A stretch of 64,000 bases of DNA from Escherichia phage slur16: sequence record NC_028248.1, one strand, 5' to 3'. The position numbers were made by a program, and so were the translations under genes. The notes under the pieces are model-generated. The model was not told where the DNA came from and made no database searches. It was given only the letters and a program-made list of their open reading frames with translations. This document shows, one piece after another, positions 19,197 through 50,879 of this stretch (within the stretch, counting starts at the first letter, position 1; every line of letters starts with the position of its first letter).

Positions 19197-20318
19197 TTAG
19201 ATAAAACGCTTGAACATAGAAGGTGATGAGATTGATGGAATCACACAAGGAAGTGCTACTTCCTCTTTCTCCAGGAAATTAATAGCAGAAGCTACACAGT
19301 CAGCCCAGTCGTCTTTTCTGTTAAATGTTGATCTTTCCCCGTTGAATTTTTCAAGTTCAGTCAGAAATGCTTCCAGAGTATCAGGATGGAAACTGGATTT
19401 TACAATCCTCACCATTCCTTGTTGGGCAAGATTGGCAAAAGGTGAGAACCTTGTCAGTTTAGATTTGTTGGAAGGCATTGGGTCTTCTTCAACCCTAAAC
19501 CCTTCGGCAAGCAAGGATCTGGAGGAGGTTAAGAACTCACTCTTACCTGCCTGACCGGGGTCCACAGAGAATACGATTATACAATCATCACCATCAAACT
19601 GCGCCTGTTTCCTGATGATCACATCTCGTTCACCAGCCTTTTTACAGAACTTGCCTTCTAGACCTGTGGAATACCTCCCGTCATCCACGTTCTCAGGACA
19701 ATAATCACCGGACAGGTAATAAAAGCCGTCGCTATCTTTACTTACCTTAACACTGGCGGTAAAGTCAGGAAATTTATTACCGGAAGTTCTCTCGGTTCCT
19801 GCCTTATCCCATGCCCTGCAAGATACTGATCCAAGGGGTACTCTATCGGCATCACGAAGGAAAGATCTTTGAAAATAGTTTGCGCCCTCAGGCTTTGCAA
19901 ACCAGTTACCATGAAGAAGCTGAGCTTTTTCCAGTTCCGGCAGACCTTCAAGGAAAGCAAGGTATTCTGGGTTGTCTCTTAAGCAAACAGGATTATCGAA
20001 TATTGTTGCGCCTATAAACGAGAATGACAACGGTCTTGGCTTGATCTCCACACCAAGTCCGTTAACCGTGGTGTATTTCTCTATCAACTCTTCTTTAGAG
20101 TCCCCCCAGATAAATTCACCGTCGCGTCGGATAAAATATCTTTTCTTACCGCATTTCTCCGGATCTGGATACCCTTCATCGTCCAACCACCACCTAACCA
20201 GTTTGGCAAGCATGTGTTCTGAATCGGGGTTACAGCTGATAACCATTCTTGATGGATACTTTGACTGAGATCGCAGACGAGACATCAGATAGTCTATCTG
20301 CTCCCATTCGAATTGTGT
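19197..20318 (-). CDS. terL: terminase large subunit, exon 2 (nuclease domain)
   Basis: Contains ISCNP coupling motif and acidic nuclease-type C-terminal domain; frame stays open upstream of the ORF-track ATG to ~20321 (TTQFEWEQIDYLMSRL...); 3' splice site approximate. Confidence 0.75.
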   Translation of the reverse strand, partial: TQFEWEQIDYLMSRLRSQSKYPSRMVISCNPDSEHMLAKLVRWWLDDEGYPDPEKCGKKRYFIRRDGEFIWGDSKEELIEKYTTVNGLGVEIKPRPLSFSFIGATIFDNPVCLRDNPEYLAFLEGLPELEKAQLLHGNWFAKPEGANYFQRSFLRDADRVPLGSVSCRAWDKAGTERTSGNKFPDFTASVKVSKDSDGFYYLSGDYCPENVDDGRYSTGLEGKFCKKAGERDVIIRKQAQFDGDDCIIVFSVDPGQAGKSEFLTSSRSLLAEGFRVEEDPMPSNKSKLTRFSPFANLAQQGMVRIVKSSFHPDTLEAFLTELEKFNGERSTFNRKDDWADCVASAINFLEKEEVALPCVIPSISSPSMFKRFI

Positions 20319-20637
20319 CGTTTATGTTCGGGCAAGGTCGCTAGTCTTGCCCCGCCATTTTCAGGCAGCTGCATGTCTCCATGCAGACCAGACTATATCT
20401 TATAAGCGACAACAACCGCTTATCCTCCCGTTTCGAATCGCTTGATTCTACGTCTTTCGACTAGTCGTTGAACGTTCATCCTCTCGGATGCTTCGCTGCG
20501 GATTATCTAAATTAACACACTGTTACCATACCTTCGATCTCTCTTCGAAGCCTCTATCATGTTACCATGACAGGTTGGTGGTATTAATAGTAAAGATTTC
20601 CCCGCAATTAGGGAGGTTTTACGAGAGCTACAAATTA
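20319..20637 (-). mobile_element. group I self-splicing intron (ORF-less) in terL
   Basis: Minus-sense conserved elements in order: P AAUUGCGGGGAA (20609-20598), Q AAUCCGCAGC (20504-20495), R GUUCAACGACUAGUC (20473-20459), S AAGAUAUAGUCUGG (20401-20388); no ORF; splits Walker ATPase from nuclease domain. Confidence 0.8.
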
Positions 20638-21063
20638 ACCCTCATCGAAGCAAACCATGGTGTACTCAAGCCCTTGATGGTTAAGCTTATCTTGTACATA
20701 CTCCATGTGGCAGTATTTTACAACAGCTCCCTTTTTGCTTCTATCCCACTTGCCAGTGTTCGGATCAAACCGTGGAAAAATGAACTTATGATCCTTCTCT
20801 CTGAACTTTGGCTTAATGTTTTCAGGCAGATCACTATAAATAGCTACCGCTTTAGGCCATAGTCCACCCTCACCTTCCAACTGCGGGGTTGTTCTTCGGA
20901 ACATAACCACAGAGCTGTGGGGGTCATCAATAATTTTAAGTGGCATCAATTGCAAGAGGAACGACTTGCCAGACCCTGCGGCACCGCCGATTACCAAAAT
21001 ATCTGCATCGTTTTCGAGGATCATCTTCTGCTTTTCAGAACACGGTCCGTAAATCTTAGACAT
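20638..21063 (-). CDS. terL: terminase large subunit, exon 1 (ATPase domain)
   Basis: Walker A GGAAGSGKS and Walker B-like VCFDE; ORF-track stop at 20635 lies in intron sequence. Confidence 0.8.
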
Positions 21064-22166: not shown

Positions 22167-22243
22167 TGGTCTCCACGGAGTGATTCGAACACTCGACCTC
22201 CTGATCCCAAATCAGGCGCTCTACCAAGCTGAGCTACGCGGAG
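22167..22243 (-). tRNA. tRNA-Pro (anticodon UGG)
   Basis: Cloverleaf with C1:G72, anticodon loop UUUGGGA, T-arm GAGUG-UUCGAAU-CACUC, CCA encoded. Confidence 0.85.
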
Positions 22244-22254
22244 TATTTATTATT

Positions 22255-22329
22255 TGGTGGCCCTGGGTGGAATTGAACCACCGTCTGGCGATTATGAGTC
22301 GCTTGCTTGAACCTTCCAGCTACAGGGCC
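22255..22329 (-). tRNA. tRNA-Met (anticodon CAU; elongator, initiator or Ile-lysidine type not resolved)
   Basis: Acceptor GGCCCUG/CAGGGCC, anticodon loop CUCAUAA, T-arm GGUGG-UUCAAUU-CCACC, CCA encoded. Confidence 0.8.
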
Positions 22330-22330
22330 A

Positions 22331-22406
22331 TGGTGCTGATGGCAGGACTTGAACCTGCAACCTATTGATTACAAATCAATTGCACTACCAATTGTGCTAC
22401 ATCAGC
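22331..22406 (-). tRNA. tRNA-Thr (anticodon UGU)
   Basis: Acceptor GCUGAUG/CAUCAGC, anticodon stem AUUGA/UCAAU with loop UUUGUAA, T-arm GCAGG-UUCAAGU-CCUGC, CCA encoded. Confidence 0.85.
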
Positions 22407-22412
22407 AAAAAA

Positions 22413-22511
22413 GGTGCTAGGTGATGGAATCGAACCACCTATGTATTCAACGACTACCTCGTCTATTTTCAGGATTAAAAATCCTCGCCCTTGCCAAAGG
22501 GCTTACCTAGC
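22413..22511 (-). tRNA. aberrant tRNA-like gene (possible pseudo-tRNA; Lys-UUU-like anticodon loop but oversized variable region)
   Basis: Perfect 7 bp acceptor GCUAGGU/ACCUAGC, D-arm GCCC-UUUGGCAA-GGGC and T-arm GGUGG-UUCGAUU-CCAUC, but ~47 nt between D- and T-arms; only CC encoded at 3' end. Confidence 0.3.
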
Positions 22512-22609
22512 TCAGTATGTTGACCATGTTGCTAGTCGGCGATGACGACTGTAACATTTGATAATCCGGTTCTGCTTCCGGCTTTCGCTTAATTACAAGG
22601 TCAACAATA

Positions 22610-22700
22610 TGGCTGAGGGTAATGGAATCGAACCATCATCGAGTCATCCTCAACGGGACGGTTTTCAAGACCGCTTGAGCACCATTGCTCCCTACCCTCA
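22610..22700 (-). tRNA. tRNA-Ser (anticodon UGA), type II with long variable arm
   Basis: Anticodon arm GCGGUCUUGAAAACCGU nearly identical to E. coli tRNA-Ser(UGA); T-arm GAUGG-UUCGAUU-CCAUU; discriminator G; CCA encoded; position 1 is U. Confidence 0.8.
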
Positions 22701-22814
22701 TTTATAAACAATACTGATAATGACACTGATTTTCGAGCAGTTAGTGACTAGTATAAACGACGATAAATATCAATGCCATTATCTGTATGATTTATGCATT
22801 TAAAACTATAAATT

Positions 22815-22901
22815 TGGTGGGGAGTGGTGGAGTCGAACCACCCGAGTCGTAATGACAATAGATTTACAGTCTACACCGCTACCTCTACGGGATAACTCCC
22901 C
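22815..22901 (-). tRNA. tRNA-Tyr (anticodon GUA), type II
   Basis: Acceptor GGGGAGU/ACUCCCC; anticodon region AGACUGUAAAUCU as in E. coli tRNA-Tyr; long variable arm; T-arm GGUGG-UUCGACU-CCACC; CCA encoded. Confidence 0.85.
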
Positions 22902-22905
22902 AATT

Positions 22906-22980
22906 TGGCACCCCGTACTGGACTCGAACCAGTGTCAACGGCTTAGAAGGCCGCTGCTTTATCCACTAAGCTAACAGGGC
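22906..22980 (-). tRNA. tRNA-Arg (anticodon UCU)
   Basis: D-arm GCUU-AGUGGAUA-AAGC, anticodon stem GCGGC/GCCGU with loop CUUCUAA, T-arm ACUGG-UUCGAGU-CCAGU, CCA encoded. Confidence 0.8.
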
Positions 22981-23076
22981 ACTGGGTGGCTTTCTTTTAC
23001 ACCTTAGCCGCCAGAAAAGGTGGGAGACCATGTTTACAATATTACACTGTTAAGCAAAGTTTGTCAAGAAAATATT

Positions 23077-45610: not shown

Positions 45611-45889
45611 ATGAGCTGTGAAAAATCTTTTTTCTTTATTATTTACGGTAAAGATAACTGCCCACATTGTGTAAGAGCAAAAGAATTTGCAGTCAGTAAA
45701 GGTCTGCCTTTTGTATATAAGACACTTGGCGAGGGTTACACAAAAGAAGAGCTTATTGAGAAGTGCAGTCCAATCGTACCCAGAACGTTGCCGCAGATCT
45801 TCTTAGAAAGCAATCTTGAAAGTGTCCATATAGGCGGTGCCGACGATTTCATCTCTTTTGTTAAGAATGGTTTTGGAGAGAAAAAGTGA
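45611..45889 (+). CDS. glutaredoxin / NrdH-like redoxin
   Basis: 92 aa with CPHC active site (YGKDNCPHCVRAKEF); between nrdB and nrdD. Confidence 0.7.
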   Translation: MSCEKSFFFIIYGKDNCPHCVRAKEFAVSKGLPFVYKTLGEGYTKEELIEKCSPIVPRTLPQIFLESNLESVHIGGADDFISFVKNGFGEKK

Positions 45890-46746
45890 AAGTTGTAAAA
45901 CGGGACGGTAGAGAAGAGGTCTATAACGGAATTAAGGTGATCAAGGCGGCAGAGTCCGCCTTACTTGAGTCTGGACATACTGAAGAAGAAGCTTACCGGA
46001 TCGCCTGTGCGGTTAATGAAGTTGTTGCTAACAATCTACCAACCGATCAGTGCACGATCTCTGTAAAAAATATCCATATCCTTGTTGAAGATGCTCTTAT
46101 GGATATGGGTTTAAAATGTGCAGCCAGAGAATACATCCAGTATAGGCAGACAAGAGATAATAACAGAGAGGCAGGTGGAAAACTGCTTGCAGATATTAGT
46201 GGCTTCTTGGATCGCACTTGTGATGAATTTACAAAAGAAAACGCAAATAAGCCTACCAATCATGTACACACTCATCGTGACCTGCTTGCAGGCATCCTTA
46301 GCAAACACCTTGCATCAACACAGATCCTGCCAGACCGTGTCTCAGAAGAGCACAATAAAGGCTTCATCCATGTGCATGATCTTGACTACTTGATCAGTCC
46401 GTTAACAAACTGTTGTTTGGTAAATTATCCAGATATGTTGGAAAACGGATTCAACATTGGCAACGCCCATGTCAGTAAGCCGAAGTCAATAGGGGTTGCA
46501 ACAACAATCCTTAGCCAAATCTCTAGTGCGGTAGCTAGTGCTCAATATGGTGGTCAGACTATGAGCCATATTGATCATTATCTGGCACAGTATGCTGAAG
46601 CAACCTATGAGAAGAACCTTAAATTTTGCCAGGAACATTGGTTGCCGGATGCTGAAACTGTTGCAATGCAAATGACAGATAAAGACGTATTTGACAGCAT
46701 GCAGACTTTGCTCTATCAAATCAATACGTTAACTTCTGTCAACGGT
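45886..46746 (+). CDS. nrdD: anaerobic ribonucleotide reductase, exon 1
   Basis: N-terminal ATP-cone-like start (MKVVKRDGREEVYNGIKV); frame ends in intron; 5' splice site approximate. Confidence 0.8.
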
Positions 46747-46749
46747 TAA

Positions 46750-47560
46750 CAAACTGGCCGTTGTAAAACTCTCCTAACCTCATAAGAGGGGTCGGTAAAT
46801 CCGGCTAACGGGGAACGCTAAGGCGAAAGCTATGCCAATCCCGTGACTAGTTCTTACAGGAGTTGGAACGGTTGTAACGACTAACGAAAGGCAGAGATGC
46901 TTGACAAACATTTCTGAACCAAGTAGTGTAGGGGTTAGTTGAAATACTAACTTCGAAATGGAGAGGCTCTATGAAAAAGATCATTCTTAATGGTGAAGAA
47001 TCAAACTATGTGATTGATGAAGTTGGAAACGTATACGGAAAACGTGGAATGCTGCACCCAATATTGTGGGGAGGTTATGGAAAAGGTAATAAGCATGTTA
47101 AACGCCGTTATATGTACTCTTTCAACCACAAAGGTAAAAAGATTCGAATCCAAACCTCAAGGGTTGTTGCCTTGTATTGTTTGCCAGATGTCCCAGAAGA
47201 CCCTGAAAACTGGGAAGTGAATCATAAAGATGGCAATACATTGAATGATCATCCGTCTAACCTAGAGTGGGTTTTGCCGGAAGATAATAAGAGACATGCT
47301 TTCCGAACAGGACTTTGTCCAGGTAAGTGCTATAGGAAAGTGCAGGCATACAAAGGGAAAATCTTGGTGGGTGAATATCCTTCACTCTACGCCTGTGCAA
47401 AAGCCTTAAATTTGAACGTAGGTAACGTTCACAGGGCTATCGAAGGAAATGCCGAAGGTAAGCATCTCACAATAAAGGGTTATTATCTTATTGAAGTAGA
47501 GTAAGAGATAGTCTGGCCCTGTGGAAACACAGGGAGGAGACAGCAGACTCCATTCATCAC
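46750..47560 (+). mobile_element. group I intron in nrdD carrying HNH homing endonuclease
   Basis: Q-like AATCCCGTGAC (46848-46858), R-like GTTGTAACGACTAACG (46871-46886), S-like AAGAGATAGTCTGG (47503-47516) flanking the HNH ORF; splits one nrdD reading frame. Confidence 0.8.
46971..47504 (+). CDS. HNH homing endonuclease (intron-encoded)
   Basis: 177 aa; HNH core EVNHKDGNTLNDHPSNLEWV; lies inside nrdD intron. Confidence 0.8.
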   Translation: MKKIILNGEESNYVIDEVGNVYGKRGMLHPILWGGYGKGNKHVKRRYMYSFNHKGKKIRIQTSRVVALYCLPDVPEDPENWEVNHKDGNTLNDHPSNLEWVLPEDNKRHAFRTGLCPGKCYRKVQAYKGKILVGEYPSLYACAKALNLNVGNVHRAIEGNAEGKHLTIKGYYLIEVE

Positions 47561-47561
47561 A

Positions 47562-48806
47562 TTGAGTTTAGGACTGGATACCTCGGTCTTTGGTAGAATG
47601 ATTACCAAAAACTACCTGAAAGTCCACAAAATGGGTCTTGGTGAAGAACGTATCACACCTGTGTTCCCTAAAGTGCTGTTCTTCCTGGAAGAGGGTGTCA
47701 ACATGAACCCTGGGGATCCTAACTATGATTTGAAACGATTAGCTCTGGAATGCTGTGCAGAACGTATCTATCCTGACTTCGTATCTGTACCACTAAATAG
47801 AAAAGTGACAGGCTCGACAGATGGCAAAGTAACTAGCATGGGTTGCAGGAGTTTTCTTAGCAAATACAATGACTTGGAAACAGGCGAGGAGAAATACCTT
47901 GGCAGATTTAACTTAGGCGTTGTTAGCCTTAACCTGCCAATGATTGCGGCAAAAGCCAAGACGGAAGGTGTTGATTTCTTTGCAGTTCTTGACGAATACT
48001 TGGATCTTGCATACGAGGCTCACCTTGTAAGGGTTAATCGTCTAAAAGGAACAAAGGCAGGGCAGAACCCCATCATGTGGTGTGAAGGCGCTCTTGCTCG
48101 CCTGGATCCTGAAGAGAGTATTGATAAACTCTTCTATGACGGGTACGCTTCCATCAGTATTGGGTATATCGGTGTGTATGAAACCTGTCAGATTTTGGGC
48201 AGAGAGGGTGACAAGGCTTTAGCTCTTGGAATCCTTCAGCACATGAGAGATGCTTGTGAGCGATACAAGAAGGAAAGTAGACTAGCATTTAGCTTGTACG
48301 GCACTCCTTCTGAGAGTCTATGCTATAAAGCTGCAACCTGTCTGGATCGTGAATATCCGGAAGTGTTGAAGCACGAGCATGAATATCTCACCAACAGTTT
48401 CCATCAGCCAGTATGGATAAATAGCTCTCCTTTTGATAAGTGGGAGTATGAGGAAGGTTTTGCTATAATCTCCTCTGGTGGCAACATCGGATACGTAGAA
48501 ACACCTAACCTGAAAAACAACCTGGATGCTTTAGAGGCTCTTGTTGACTTCGGGTATAAACACATTATGTATTTTGGTATTAACCAACCTGTGGATAAAT
48601 GTCTCAAGTGTGGTTTCTCTGGTGAGTTCAGTGCAACAGCTAAAGGCTTTGTATGCCCAGAGTGTGGAAACCATGAAGAGGGAACGATCAGTGTAATTCG
48701 ACGTGTGTCTGGATACCTTTCCAGTCCTAACTCCCGTCCTTACAATAAAGGTAAGCAAGCGGAAGTTATCGAGCGAGTTAAGCACTACGGAAGTTGTGGT
48801 TGCTGA
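47562..48806 (+). CDS. nrdD: anaerobic ribonucleotide reductase, exon 2
   Basis: GRFNLGVVSLNLP; C-terminal zinc ribbon CLKCGF...CPECG and glycyl-radical motif RRVSGYL; exon probably begins 10-40 nt upstream of the ORF-track TTG. Confidence 0.8.
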   Translation: MSLGLDTSVFGRMITKNYLKVHKMGLGEERITPVFPKVLFFLEEGVNMNPGDPNYDLKRLALECCAERIYPDFVSVPLNRKVTGSTDGKVTSMGCRSFLSKYNDLETGEEKYLGRFNLGVVSLNLPMIAAKAKTEGVDFFAVLDEYLDLAYEAHLVRVNRLKGTKAGQNPIMWCEGALARLDPEESIDKLFYDGYASISIGYIGVYETCQILGREGDKALALGILQHMRDACERYKKESRLAFSLYGTPSESLCYKAATCLDREYPEVLKHEHEYLTNSFHQPVWINSSPFDKWEYEEGFAIISSGGNIGYVETPNLKNNLDALEALVDFGYKHIMYFGINQPVDKCLKCGFSGEFSATAKGFVCPECGNHEEGTISVIRRVSGYLSSPNSRPYNKGKQAEVIERVKHYGSCGC

Positions 48807-48869
48807 TTCTTGACAAAAGCCACAAGGATGTGGCATATTATTGACACACAGTGAGCTAGGAGGTGCAGT

Positions 48870-48986
48870 ATGTCATCAGGTATTTATAAAATTTGCAAGT
48901 GCGGCTGTAGTTGTAATCTTCGTTGGTGCAAGGCACTAGACGATTTTATTTGGCATTGCCCTAAATGTGATGCGGAGTATCTATGA
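48870..48986 (+). CDS. small Cys-rich zinc-ribbon protein (38 aa)
   Basis: MSSGIYKICKCGCSCNLRWCKALDDFIWHCPKCDAEYL; AGGAGG RBS 7 nt upstream; stop overlaps nrdG start; below ORF-track size cutoff. Confidence 0.4.
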   Translation: MSSGIYKICKCGCSCNLRWCKALDDFIWHCPKCDAEYL

Positions 48987-49456
48987 ACATTGCTGGATAC
49001 ACAGAAATATCTTACACCGAAGGACCAGGTATTAGAACTGCCTTGTGGGTATCTGGGTGCCCACACGCTTGCCCTGGTTGCTTTAATCAGGCATTTTGGT
49101 CAAAAGATAAGGGGAGGAAGTTCACTGAAGAAGACTTGCAAAAAATCTTGTCAGATTTAGATAACCCGTCTGTGTGCGGTATCTCTCTACTGGGTGGAGA
49201 ACCCTTAGCATACTATAATGAGCCAGATATTATTAGCCTGATGGAGAAAATTAAGGAAAAATTTGGTGACAAGAAAACTATTCTTGTATATACTGGGTTC
49301 ACATTTGACCATATCTCTAGTGATGTTCTTAAACTGGCTGATATCATCATTGACGGTAAGTATGTAAAAGATTTACCAACCAAGAAACCGTTCCGAGGCA
49401 GTGATAACCAAAGAATGTTTAAAAAAGTATCAGGCGGTTGGGTTCAGGTAGACTAG
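48983..49456 (+). CDS. nrdG: anaerobic ribonucleotide reductase activating protein (radical SAM)
   Basis: Cysteine cluster CPHACPGC near N-terminus; ~157 aa; follows nrdD. Confidence 0.8.
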   Translation: MNIAGYTEISYTEGPGIRTALWVSGCPHACPGCFNQAFWSKDKGRKFTEEDLQKILSDLDNPSVCGISLLGGEPLAYYNEPDIISLMEKIKEKFGDKKTILVYTGFTFDHISSDVLKLADIIIDGKYVKDLPTKKPFRGSDNQRMFKKVSGGWVQVD

Positions 49457-49459
49457 TTG

Positions 49460-49489
49460 TTGACAAAGCTTTGTTGAGTTGGTTATAAT
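49460..49489 (+). promoter_or_regulatory. sigma70-like promoter (near consensus)
   Basis: TTGACA (49460-49465), 18 nt spacer, TATAAT (49484-49489). Confidence 0.6.
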
Positions 49490-50850: not shown

Positions 50851-50879
50851 TTGACAAATAGGTAAGCTTTAGATATTAT
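50851..50879 (+). promoter_or_regulatory. sigma70-like promoter
   Basis: TTGACA (50851-50856), 17 nt spacer, TATTAT (50874-50879); same TATTATCGG downstream motif as promoter at 33327. Confidence 0.55.

Follow-up and report, generated by a model that had tools for sequence, protein, structure and literature searches.

We studied the nrdD locus in a 64,000-nucleotide (nt) stretch of Escherichia phage slur16 (NC_028248.1), called the window below, where a sequence-only reading had proposed that the gene for the anaerobic, class III ribonucleotide reductase (RNR) is interrupted by a group I intron encoding an HNH homing endonuclease. The genes at this locus are ordered nrdB, glutaredoxin, nrdD, a 38-codon Cys-rich open reading frame (ORF), and nrdG. 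The region from 45886 to 48806 is 100% identical to that of Escherichia phage slur12 (LN881735.1), an rV5-like Vequintavirus, and 25 further records match it at 94 to 99% identity. Protein and DNA alignments bore out the proposal of two nrdD pieces with an insert between them, and the region resolved into the following features.

45886-46746, plus strand: nrdD exon 1, 287 codons, encoding the ATP-cone and the N-terminal part of the class III RNR
46747-47543, plus strand: group I intron of IA type, 797 nt, starting with UAAC and ending in the terminal G, with boundaries taken from intron-less alleles
46971-47504, plus strand: HNH homing-endonuclease gene, 177 amino acids, I-HmuI-like, in the P8 loop of the intron
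47544-48806, plus strand: nrdD exon 2, 420 codons plus stop, including the glycyl-radical domain

The ORF at 45886-46749 encodes NrdD residues 1 to 287 (Pfam ATP-cone, E = 1.7e-14; Pfam NRDD, E = 2.2e-41), and the exon 1 product matches PDB entry 9d3x (E = 1e-53). The intron opens with the TAA stop codon of this ORF, which puts the end of exon 1 at 46746, and the span first proposed for it (45886-46746) held. The boundaries had been offered as approximate, and the other one moved: exon 2 begins at 47544 with CAG ACT CCA TTC (QTPF) and not at about 47560, the ORF as listed by the program opening later, at an internal TTG at 47562. The exon 2 product matches PDB entry 1h78 (E = 2.4e-108) and contains Pfam NRDD (E = 2.6e-111) and Gly_radical (E = 4.9e-23). 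The class III RNR domains (ATP-cone, NRDD, and glycyl-radical) are all present in one collinear NrdD, and the gene for the NrdG activase adjoins it (48983-49456; Fer4_12, E = 1e-42). In alignments to T4 NrdD and 9d3x, exon 1 ends at T4 residue 190 (G190; 9d3x residue 302) and exon 2 begins at residue 191 (303). This exact end-to-start alignment indicates that the two halves are collinear, with no residue missing or duplicated. Alignment with uninterrupted NrdD, which had been suggested as a check, thus gave halves that are collinear without a gap for T4 NrdD, 9d3x, and sister-phage nrdD alike.

We searched the predicted spliced junction (...GTCAACGGT joined directly to CAGACTCCATTC...) against phage genomes, and many sister phages contain it uninterrupted, with identity as high as 99.3%. 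One intron-less allele reads, at the insertion site, ...GTCAACGGGCAAACTCCATTC..., and intron-less alleles in phages such as inoa and rV5_ev147 read ...AACGGGCAAACTCC.... The computed spliced nrdD (a 2,124-nt coding sequence with a 707-amino-acid product) aligned to the 2,124-nt nrdD of APECc02 and others with no insertions or deletions. Because intron-less alleles match both the spliced junction and the spliced coding sequence in this way, the insert is fixed at 46747-47543; it is present as proposed, with a length of 797 nt rather than about 810 bp. The insertion point lies between the codons for Gly287 and Gln288, within the conserved NGQTPF motif. The terminal G of the intron (omega-G, G47543) directly precedes exon 2, and all homologues likewise end in G.

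We derived the structure of the insert by hand from the intron sequence and found the following elements.

46740-46763, plus strand: P1, exon CAACGGU (46740-46746) with internal guide GCCGUUG (46757-46763)
46754-46756 and 47544-47546: possible P10 of 3 base pairs (bp), CUG with exon 2 CAG
46769-46774 and 46960-46965, plus strand: P3, CUCUCC with GGAGAG, with C-G changed to G-C in ORF-less variants
46778-81/46786-89, plus strand: P3.1, with compensatory changes, named by position
46791-95/46801-05, plus strand: P3.2, with compensatory changes, named by position
46808-46873, plus strand: P4-P6 domain, with P4 at 46808-13/46839-44 and P5 at 46817-18/46834-35
46822-24/46829-31, plus strand: P5a, with a GAAA loop
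46845-53/46866-73, plus strand: P6
46879-46883 and 47509-47513, plus strand: P7, GACUA with UAGUC, invariant in all nine sequences compared
46892-99/46909-16, plus strand: P7.1, IA peripheral hairpin, with compensatory changes
46931-39/46946-54, plus strand: P7.2, IA peripheral hairpin, with compensatory changes
46967-46972 and 47496-47501, plus strand: P8, CUCUAU with GUAGAG, enclosing the endonuclease ORF
47517-23/47528-34, plus strand: P9, with a GAAA loop

The anatomy of the insert is that of a complete group I intron, which supports the interpretation first given to it: a U.G pair at the splice site in P1 (U46746.G46757), a terminal G, a pseudoknot formed by P7 with P3, P4-P6, P8, P9, and a J8/7 close to consensus, with covariation across homologues. 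P2 is absent. The R-like and S-like elements said to flank the ORF are both present where they had been reported: the first, GTTGTAACGACTAACG at 46871-46886, corresponds to J6/7 and P7 and includes the R element GUAACGACUA at 46874-83; the second, AAGAGATAGTCTGG at 47503-47516, corresponds to J8/7 and P7', of which the stretch AAGAGAUAGUC at 47503-13 has one mismatch to the Rfam RF00028 consensus AAGAUAUAGUC. P7.1 and P7.2 lie between P7 and P3', in the same order as in the T4 nrdD intron, which places the element in subgroup IA (IA2-like). Such extra P7.1/P7.2 hairpins between P7 and P3' are said to be what Michel and Westhof took in 1990 as the criterion of this subgroup. Over about 44 nt, the P4-P5 sequence is roughly 87 to 90% identical to introns of Listeria and Bacillus phages. 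We considered the P3 5' strand that Rfam places within the 3' strand of the second hairpin and rejected it, since it gives about 3 bp, versus the 6-bp CUCUCC/GGAGAG pairing, which is kept in all nine sequences with a G-C/C-G swap. P3.1 and P3.2 were likewise dropped as a novel feature: the same layout occurs in introns of L010, L012, L023, L025, and Bacillus phage S4-2, in unrelated genes, and P3.1 is described as an optional group I helix (PMC3873408).

To evaluate the structure comparatively, we aligned nine homologues, trimmed of their ORFs and including both ORF-less and ORF-bearing introns. The homologues included an 86%-identical ORF-less intron of 257 nt at the same site (AlexBoehm, CM1, and about 12 other records); a third ORF-less variant on an IMG/VR contig (L009); the same intron with a homologous ORF on an AT-rich phage contig (L019); and introns on three metagenomic contigs reached via relatives of the endonuclease (L031, L032, and L034). 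Standard pairing was found in 94.6% of the alignment cells, versus 35 to 49% when the partners were slid by 1 to 3 columns; both sides had changed in 34 of 83 pairs, and none of 500 shuffles reached any of the observed measures. P4, P5, and P7 were invariant; covariation was found in P1, P3, P3.1, P3.2, P5a, P6, P7.1, P7.2, P8, and P9, and it was strongest in P8 (both-side changes at 5/6 pairs, with 100% of cells paired) and P9 (5/7). All 7 pairs of P1 hold in all nine homologues: six are invariant, and the first is C-G, A-U, U-A, or U.G depending on the homologue. P1 covaries with the exon, GUC/G becoming GUA/U in the ORF-less form, with U-A in L019 and L032. The protein-match E values and the covariation test together exclude chance as an explanation of these patterns.

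The ORF at 46971-47504, whose coordinates and 177-amino-acid length were exactly as proposed, scores above the cutoff for Pfam HNH_3 (29.5 bits versus 24.8) and below it for an I-HmuI_NUMOD-like domain (18.4 versus 27). By sequence, residues 8 to 160 align with I-HmuI (PDB 1U3E; E = 1.8e-4, about 22% identity). We modeled the protein with AlphaFold (mean predicted local distance difference test score, 87.5), and a Foldseek search with the model returned 1U3E as the sole significant PDB match (E = 1.2e-9, probability 1.00, template modeling score 0.51 over 188 columns). This match supports the full-length I-HmuI architecture of an N-terminal beta-sheet DNA-binding domain, an HNH domain, and a C-terminal helix-turn-helix. 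The motif residues N84, H85, N97, N106, and H109 are invariant in eight homologues, and H85, N97, and N106 align with H75, N87, and N96 of I-HmuI. Relative to FV3, 19 codons of the ORF differ, 17 synonymously and 2 nonsynonymously, indicating purifying selection. By alignment and modeled fold, then, the ORF product is an I-HmuI-type HNH endonuclease that would be expected to cleave DNA. I-HmuI itself, from the DNA polymerase intron of Bacillus phage SPO1, is of similar length (174 versus 177 amino acids) and is also encoded in a phage group I intron; it differs in host gene and target, and the window enzyme has an Asn in place of the Asp before the catalytic His. I-HmuI nicks one strand.

The ORF is interlocked with the ribozyme, as the following features illustrate.

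46960-46966, plus strand: GGAGAGG, of which GGAGAG (46960-65) is both the 3' strand of P3 and the Shine-Dalgarno (SD) sequence of the ORF
46901-46929, plus strand: sigma-70 promoter-like site, with TTGACA in the P7.1 loop separated by 17 nt from TAGTGT; the start codon of the endonuclease follows about 40 nt downstream
47536-47551, plus strand: 3' splice-site hairpin, intron GGAG (47536-39) with exon 2 CUCC (47548-51)

The 5' strand of P8 holds the AU of the AUG start codon of the ORF, the 3' strand of P8 is formed by its last two sense codons, and its TAA stop overlaps J8/7. The same layout, with the SD in P3 and the start and end of the ORF in P8, recurs in all ORF-bearing homologues, with a different P8 sequence in each. 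Since the SD is a strand of P3 and the start and last codons form P8, the folded ribozyme should repress translation of the endonuclease.

The pattern TTGACA-N16-18-TANNNT has 25 matches in the window, versus 2.9 expected from shuffles (7 in the largest shuffle), and we infer from this excess that most such sites are real promoters in this phage, presumably its host sigma-70 early promoters. Others lie at 23039-23067 on the minus strand and at 49460-49489 and 50851-50879 on the plus strand, and many have TTGACAA with TG before the -10. FV3, L031, L032, and L034 all keep the intronic TTGACA at the same position even as the P7.1 stem varies; the ORF-less variants lack it. Because its -10 matches 3/6 positions, the site inside the intron escaped a stricter generic promoter scan and was recovered only with the looser, genome-specific pattern. 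We regard 46901-46929 as a candidate promoter for the endonuclease gene. The expression arrangement of T4 I-TevI resembles such an internal-promoter scheme.

The loop of the 3' splice-site hairpin holds the terminal G47543 and the first four bases of exon 2, and its stem uses exon 2 positions +5 to +8. All 4 of its 4 pairs change on both sides among the homologues (GGAG/CUCC, GGGG/CCCC, GGGCA/UGCCC, and GGCG/CGCC). Judging from this pairing, the hairpin could steer the choice of the 3' splice site or couple splicing to the exon context. Neither the intronic promoter nor the 3' hairpin was described for this intron family in the literature searched. We propose tentatively, and with rather less than even confidence, that the lineage is an element dedicated to the nrdD site at NG/QTPF, with unusually tight wiring between ribozyme and endonuclease that includes the SD in P3, P8, the P7.1 promoter, and the 3' hairpin.

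Next, we looked into the distribution of the intron across 118 Vequintavirus-type records that hold the relevant part of nrdD. The intron with its ORF was present in 26 of the 118, the ORF-less 257-nt version occupied the same site in about 14, and the site was empty in about 78. Sister Vequintaviruses (WalterGehring, FFH2, FV3, and others) carry an element 94 to 100% identical to that in the window at the identical site, and the ORF-less variant is found in AlexBoehm, CM1, navn, and others. The ORF-less form is 86% identical over its first 139 nt; its P7.1-P8 segments differ, and the flanking exon tract has diverged. Relatives of the endonuclease are 46 to 88% identical to it. Four homologues (51 to 65% identical) were traced to their DNA, and all four lay inside nrdD; L031, L032, and L034 retain the 5' junction, at the same NG/Q site, and L033 is cut off upstream of the junction. 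L035 has the same sequence as L034. L019, which was reached via its intron, also has its intron at the NG/Q site; its endonuclease is 46% identical to that of the window and its NrdD exon 1 protein only 38%, indicating that the element is more conserved than its hosts. The element is therefore present or absent at one precise site among close relatives and recurs at the homologous site in distant hosts, as expected of a mobile intron. Every intron-bearing allele ends exon 1 with a T, the base required for the U.G pair of P1, and the five empty alleles examined all have G there; exon position +3 is G only in ORF-bearing alleles. These flanking markers are compatible with co-conversion. In ORF-less alleles, the 100-nt bin at the junction holds 15 to 19 substitutions, clustered from -57 to +12, a tract that looks like co-conversion from a divergent donor.

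These patterns could also arise if the intron splices and its ORF no longer encodes an active homing enzyme, the protein being inactive or retained for some other function, the patchy distribution then reflecting ordinary recombination among co-infecting Vequintaviruses. The alignment of Asn84 with Asp74 of I-HmuI fits this explanation, as does the persistence of the ORF-less variant in about 14 genomes without an enzyme of its own. The strong purifying selection on the ORF and its invariant HNH motif speak against it, and finding the same ORF lineage at the same nrdD site in hosts whose NrdD proteins are only 38% identical is the pattern of site-specific homing. We consider an inactive enzyme improbable.

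Less probable still is that no splicing occurs and that an endonuclease cassette has split nrdD into two polypeptides that reassemble, as has been reported for the nrdA of Aeromonas phage Aeh1, which mobE splits. Several GenBank records (slur12, FV3, and CM1) do annotate two separate NrdD ORFs, non-splicing endonuclease insertions are known in the phage subfamily (PMC7344957), and the in-frame TTG at 47562 could open a C-terminal fragment. However, a start at this TTG loses the conserved QTPFIT, and the nearest SD-like sequence is 21 nt upstream. Moreover, a complete, covarying ribozyme core is kept around the ORF, P1 and the 3' splice-site hairpin covary with exon bases, and an ORF-less 257-nt version persists at the site, which would be senseless for a mere endonuclease cassette. 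Just as hard to credit is a decayed relic that splices inefficiently, leaving nrdD a pseudogene and the class I RNR (nrdAB, upstream) to supply deoxynucleoside triphosphates: the Rfam score below threshold and the short P10 could be taken as signs of decay, but both exons are intact and nrdG follows them, the 5' core of the ribozyme differs from that of FV3 at 3 of about 224 positions and the ORF by about 20 mostly synonymous changes, and compensatory changes keep the helices in lineages whose endonucleases are only 46 to 65% identical. We ruled out an intein because the intron begins with an in-frame TAA codon, because no reading frame runs through it from the exons, and because of its RNA structure.

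Several observations weigh against the interpretation of the insert as a functional group I intron with its own endonuclease promoter. RF00028, whose threshold is 50 bits, scores the window intron at only 28.8 and the ORF-less relative at 29.8; J8/7 is one base off consensus (GAGAUAG versus GAUAUAG); and P10 is short, with just 3 bp in the window and 2 in most relatives (helix 2 of the covariation test, with 74% of cells paired). The structure was derived from the same nine sequences that were used in the covariation test, and since several of the nine are close relatives, the counts are not fully independent. In addition, conservation of the -10 hexamer is not specific for a promoter, because the hexamer overlaps the conserved RNA motif GUAGGG.

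With regard to the Rfam score, RF00028 at its gathering threshold (50 bits) found no match for the nrdD intron in the window, in the ORF-less relatives, or in L019, and the group I assignment is for this reason based on manual and comparative structure. Below the threshold, the model aligned the ORF-less relative over its full length (29.8 bits; E = 6e-6 in that small search). Among the controls, the T4 nrdD intron scored 105 bits, and the annotated polymerase intron of Listeria phage LP-114 failed the threshold, as L019 did. The low score therefore reflects the reach of the model, since other annotated phage introns that contain ORFs or additional hairpins also miss the threshold.

Taken together, we consider it highly probable that the insert in nrdD is a mobile IA-type group I intron, with splicing, homing, and endonuclease expression following from its anatomy and distribution as expected activities. 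In the transcript, P1 would form between the internal guide and the seven bases that close exon 1, and the P3/P7 pseudoknot, P4-P6, and P8 would form the catalytic core. Two guanosine-initiated transesterifications would then join 46746 to 47544 and restore the 707-amino-acid NrdD; in unspliced RNA, translation would stop at the TAA that opens the intron. During mixed infection, the endonuclease would nick or cut an intron-less nrdD near the insertion site, and repair templated by the intron-bearing genome would transfer the intron, along with neighboring exon bases, to the recipient (homing). In the full-length pre-mRNA, the fold would hide the SD and the start codon, keeping the endonuclease silent; a shorter transcript from the candidate promoter in the P7.1 loop would lack the 5' strand of P3, leaving the SD free and the ORF translatable.

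The sequence-only reading had also drawn a parallel with the T4 nrdD intron. The parallel stands as far as the host gene goes and fails for the exact site, the class of enzyme, and the position of the ORF. Both elements are of the mobile-intron type and lie in a phage RNR gene; the T4 nrdD (sunY) intron interrupts the same conserved region, is of IA type without P2 and with P7.1 and P7.2, and shares the UAAC start, UAAAA between P1 and P3, and CGAAAC/U just before P3'. In contrast, the T4 intron is inserted after nt 538, 32 nt upstream of the site equivalent to nt 570; its enzyme is I-TevII, of the GIY-YIG class, encoded by an ORF downstream of P9, whereas the HNH ORF lies in the P8 loop here; and it has no hairpins between P3 and P4 (RF00028, 105 bits versus 29 here). 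Global identity to the T4 nrdD core (68 to 72%) was set aside as uninformative, being no better than that to an unrelated terL intron (63 to 65%), so the relation to the T4 intron is based on architecture. The DNA polymerase intron of Listeria phages LP-114 and P70, which carries an HNH ORF, is about 87% identical over 44 nt of P4-P5 and shares the layout P1 - UAAAAA - P3 - UAAA - P4; it differs in lying in another gene, in lacking P3.1 and P3.2, and in where its ORF opens, about 45 nt past P4' (by position, within the P6 region or just beyond it).

The window holds a second group I intron at 20369-20647 on the minus strand (RF00028, 84.3 bits), which is ORF-less and splits terL into 20638-21063 (Terminase_6N) and 19200-20285 (Terminase_6N/6C), matching the terL introns of rV5. 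It differs from the nrdD intron in its gene, in lacking an ORF, and in its ordinary P3-J3/4-P4 junction. For rV5, only terL group I introns were reported (Kropinski et al. 2013, PMC3606486). We found no published description of a Vequintavirus nrdD intron; the literature, in which a survey of phage RNRs was also searched for nrdD introns, gave the rV5 terL introns and general statements only. The BASEL records annotate nrdD as a joined coding sequence with an internal "putative homing endonuclease" in WalterGehring and as joined across the ORF-less intron in AlexBoehm. Elsewhere in the window, Rfam finds six tRNA genes at 22170-22980 on the minus strand, two of them marginal (35.5 and 29.9 bits versus a threshold of 29).

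Further insertions occur around nrdD in relatives. Some sister phages (phita32/L001 and "Campylobacter phage C2") carry a second insert, of 762 nt with a 170-amino-acid ORF, between the positions equivalent to 47843 and 47844 (nrdD coding-sequence nt 1161), just before the TGC of the MGCRSF motif (the catalytic Cys by T4 alignment). This site, about 300 nt downstream of the intron site, is empty in the window, and L019 has an intron-like insert at the equivalent site. Around it, FV3 has 26 substitutions per 100 nt yet no insert, and phita32 has 21, a density suggestive of an earlier co-conversion or of the loss of an intron. WalterGehring has a free-standing 993-nt gene for a "putative homing endonuclease" between nrdD and the Cys-rich ORF (L002 4459-5451), equivalent to about 48810-48870 of the window, where it is absent. 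In several metagenomic relatives, nrdD is in at least three pieces (L031 153-1278, L032 70-1270, and L033 638-2047), and L031 has a further HNH ORF upstream. Independent insertions seem to have entered nrdD repeatedly, as at a hot spot. About 19 "Campylobacter phage" records (MG0656xx; C2, C12, A147, and others; 137 to 143 kb), among which all three intron states are represented, are 96 to 99% identical to E. coli Vequintaviruses across nrdD; their host label is probably wrong or reflects contamination.

At the 5' end of the gene, the GTG start of nrdD at 45886 overlaps the stop codon of the glutaredoxin gene. In some sister records, nrdD begins farther inside the gene, at the ATG corresponding to 46099, a start that would remove the ATP-cone; GTG 45886 is the more likely start because it gives a complete ATP-cone (Pfam, residues 1 to 91) and overlaps the glutaredoxin stop. 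Between nrdD and nrdG, the Cys-rich ORF (MSSGIYKICKCGCSCNLRWCKALDDFIWHCPKCDAEYL; 48870-48986, plus strand) has a stop codon that overlaps the nrdG start (ATGA), is annotated in sister records as a 117-nt hypothetical gene, and looks zinc-ribbon-like.

As a mobile group I intron, the element is ordinary and of a familiar type, public annotation of sister genomes already records it, and the outcome will not surprise specialists; its mildly novel points are limited to the regulatory wiring and the 3' splice-site hairpin. In the slur12 record (LN881735.1), "nrdD_1," "hypothetical protein," and "nrdD_2" should be replaced by a joined coding sequence for a 707-amino-acid NrdD and an intron-encoded HNH endonuclease. 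The intron is a further case of selfish introns in conserved, catalytically important stretches of RNR genes, and a stretch of about 35 nt in nrdD has been invaded at two positions by introns with unrelated endonucleases (GIY-YIG in T4 and HNH here). With three allelic states among more than 100 near-identical genomes, the Vequintaviruses offer a natural experiment on intron gain, loss, and co-conversion, and the second intron site 300 nt downstream in some of them widens it.

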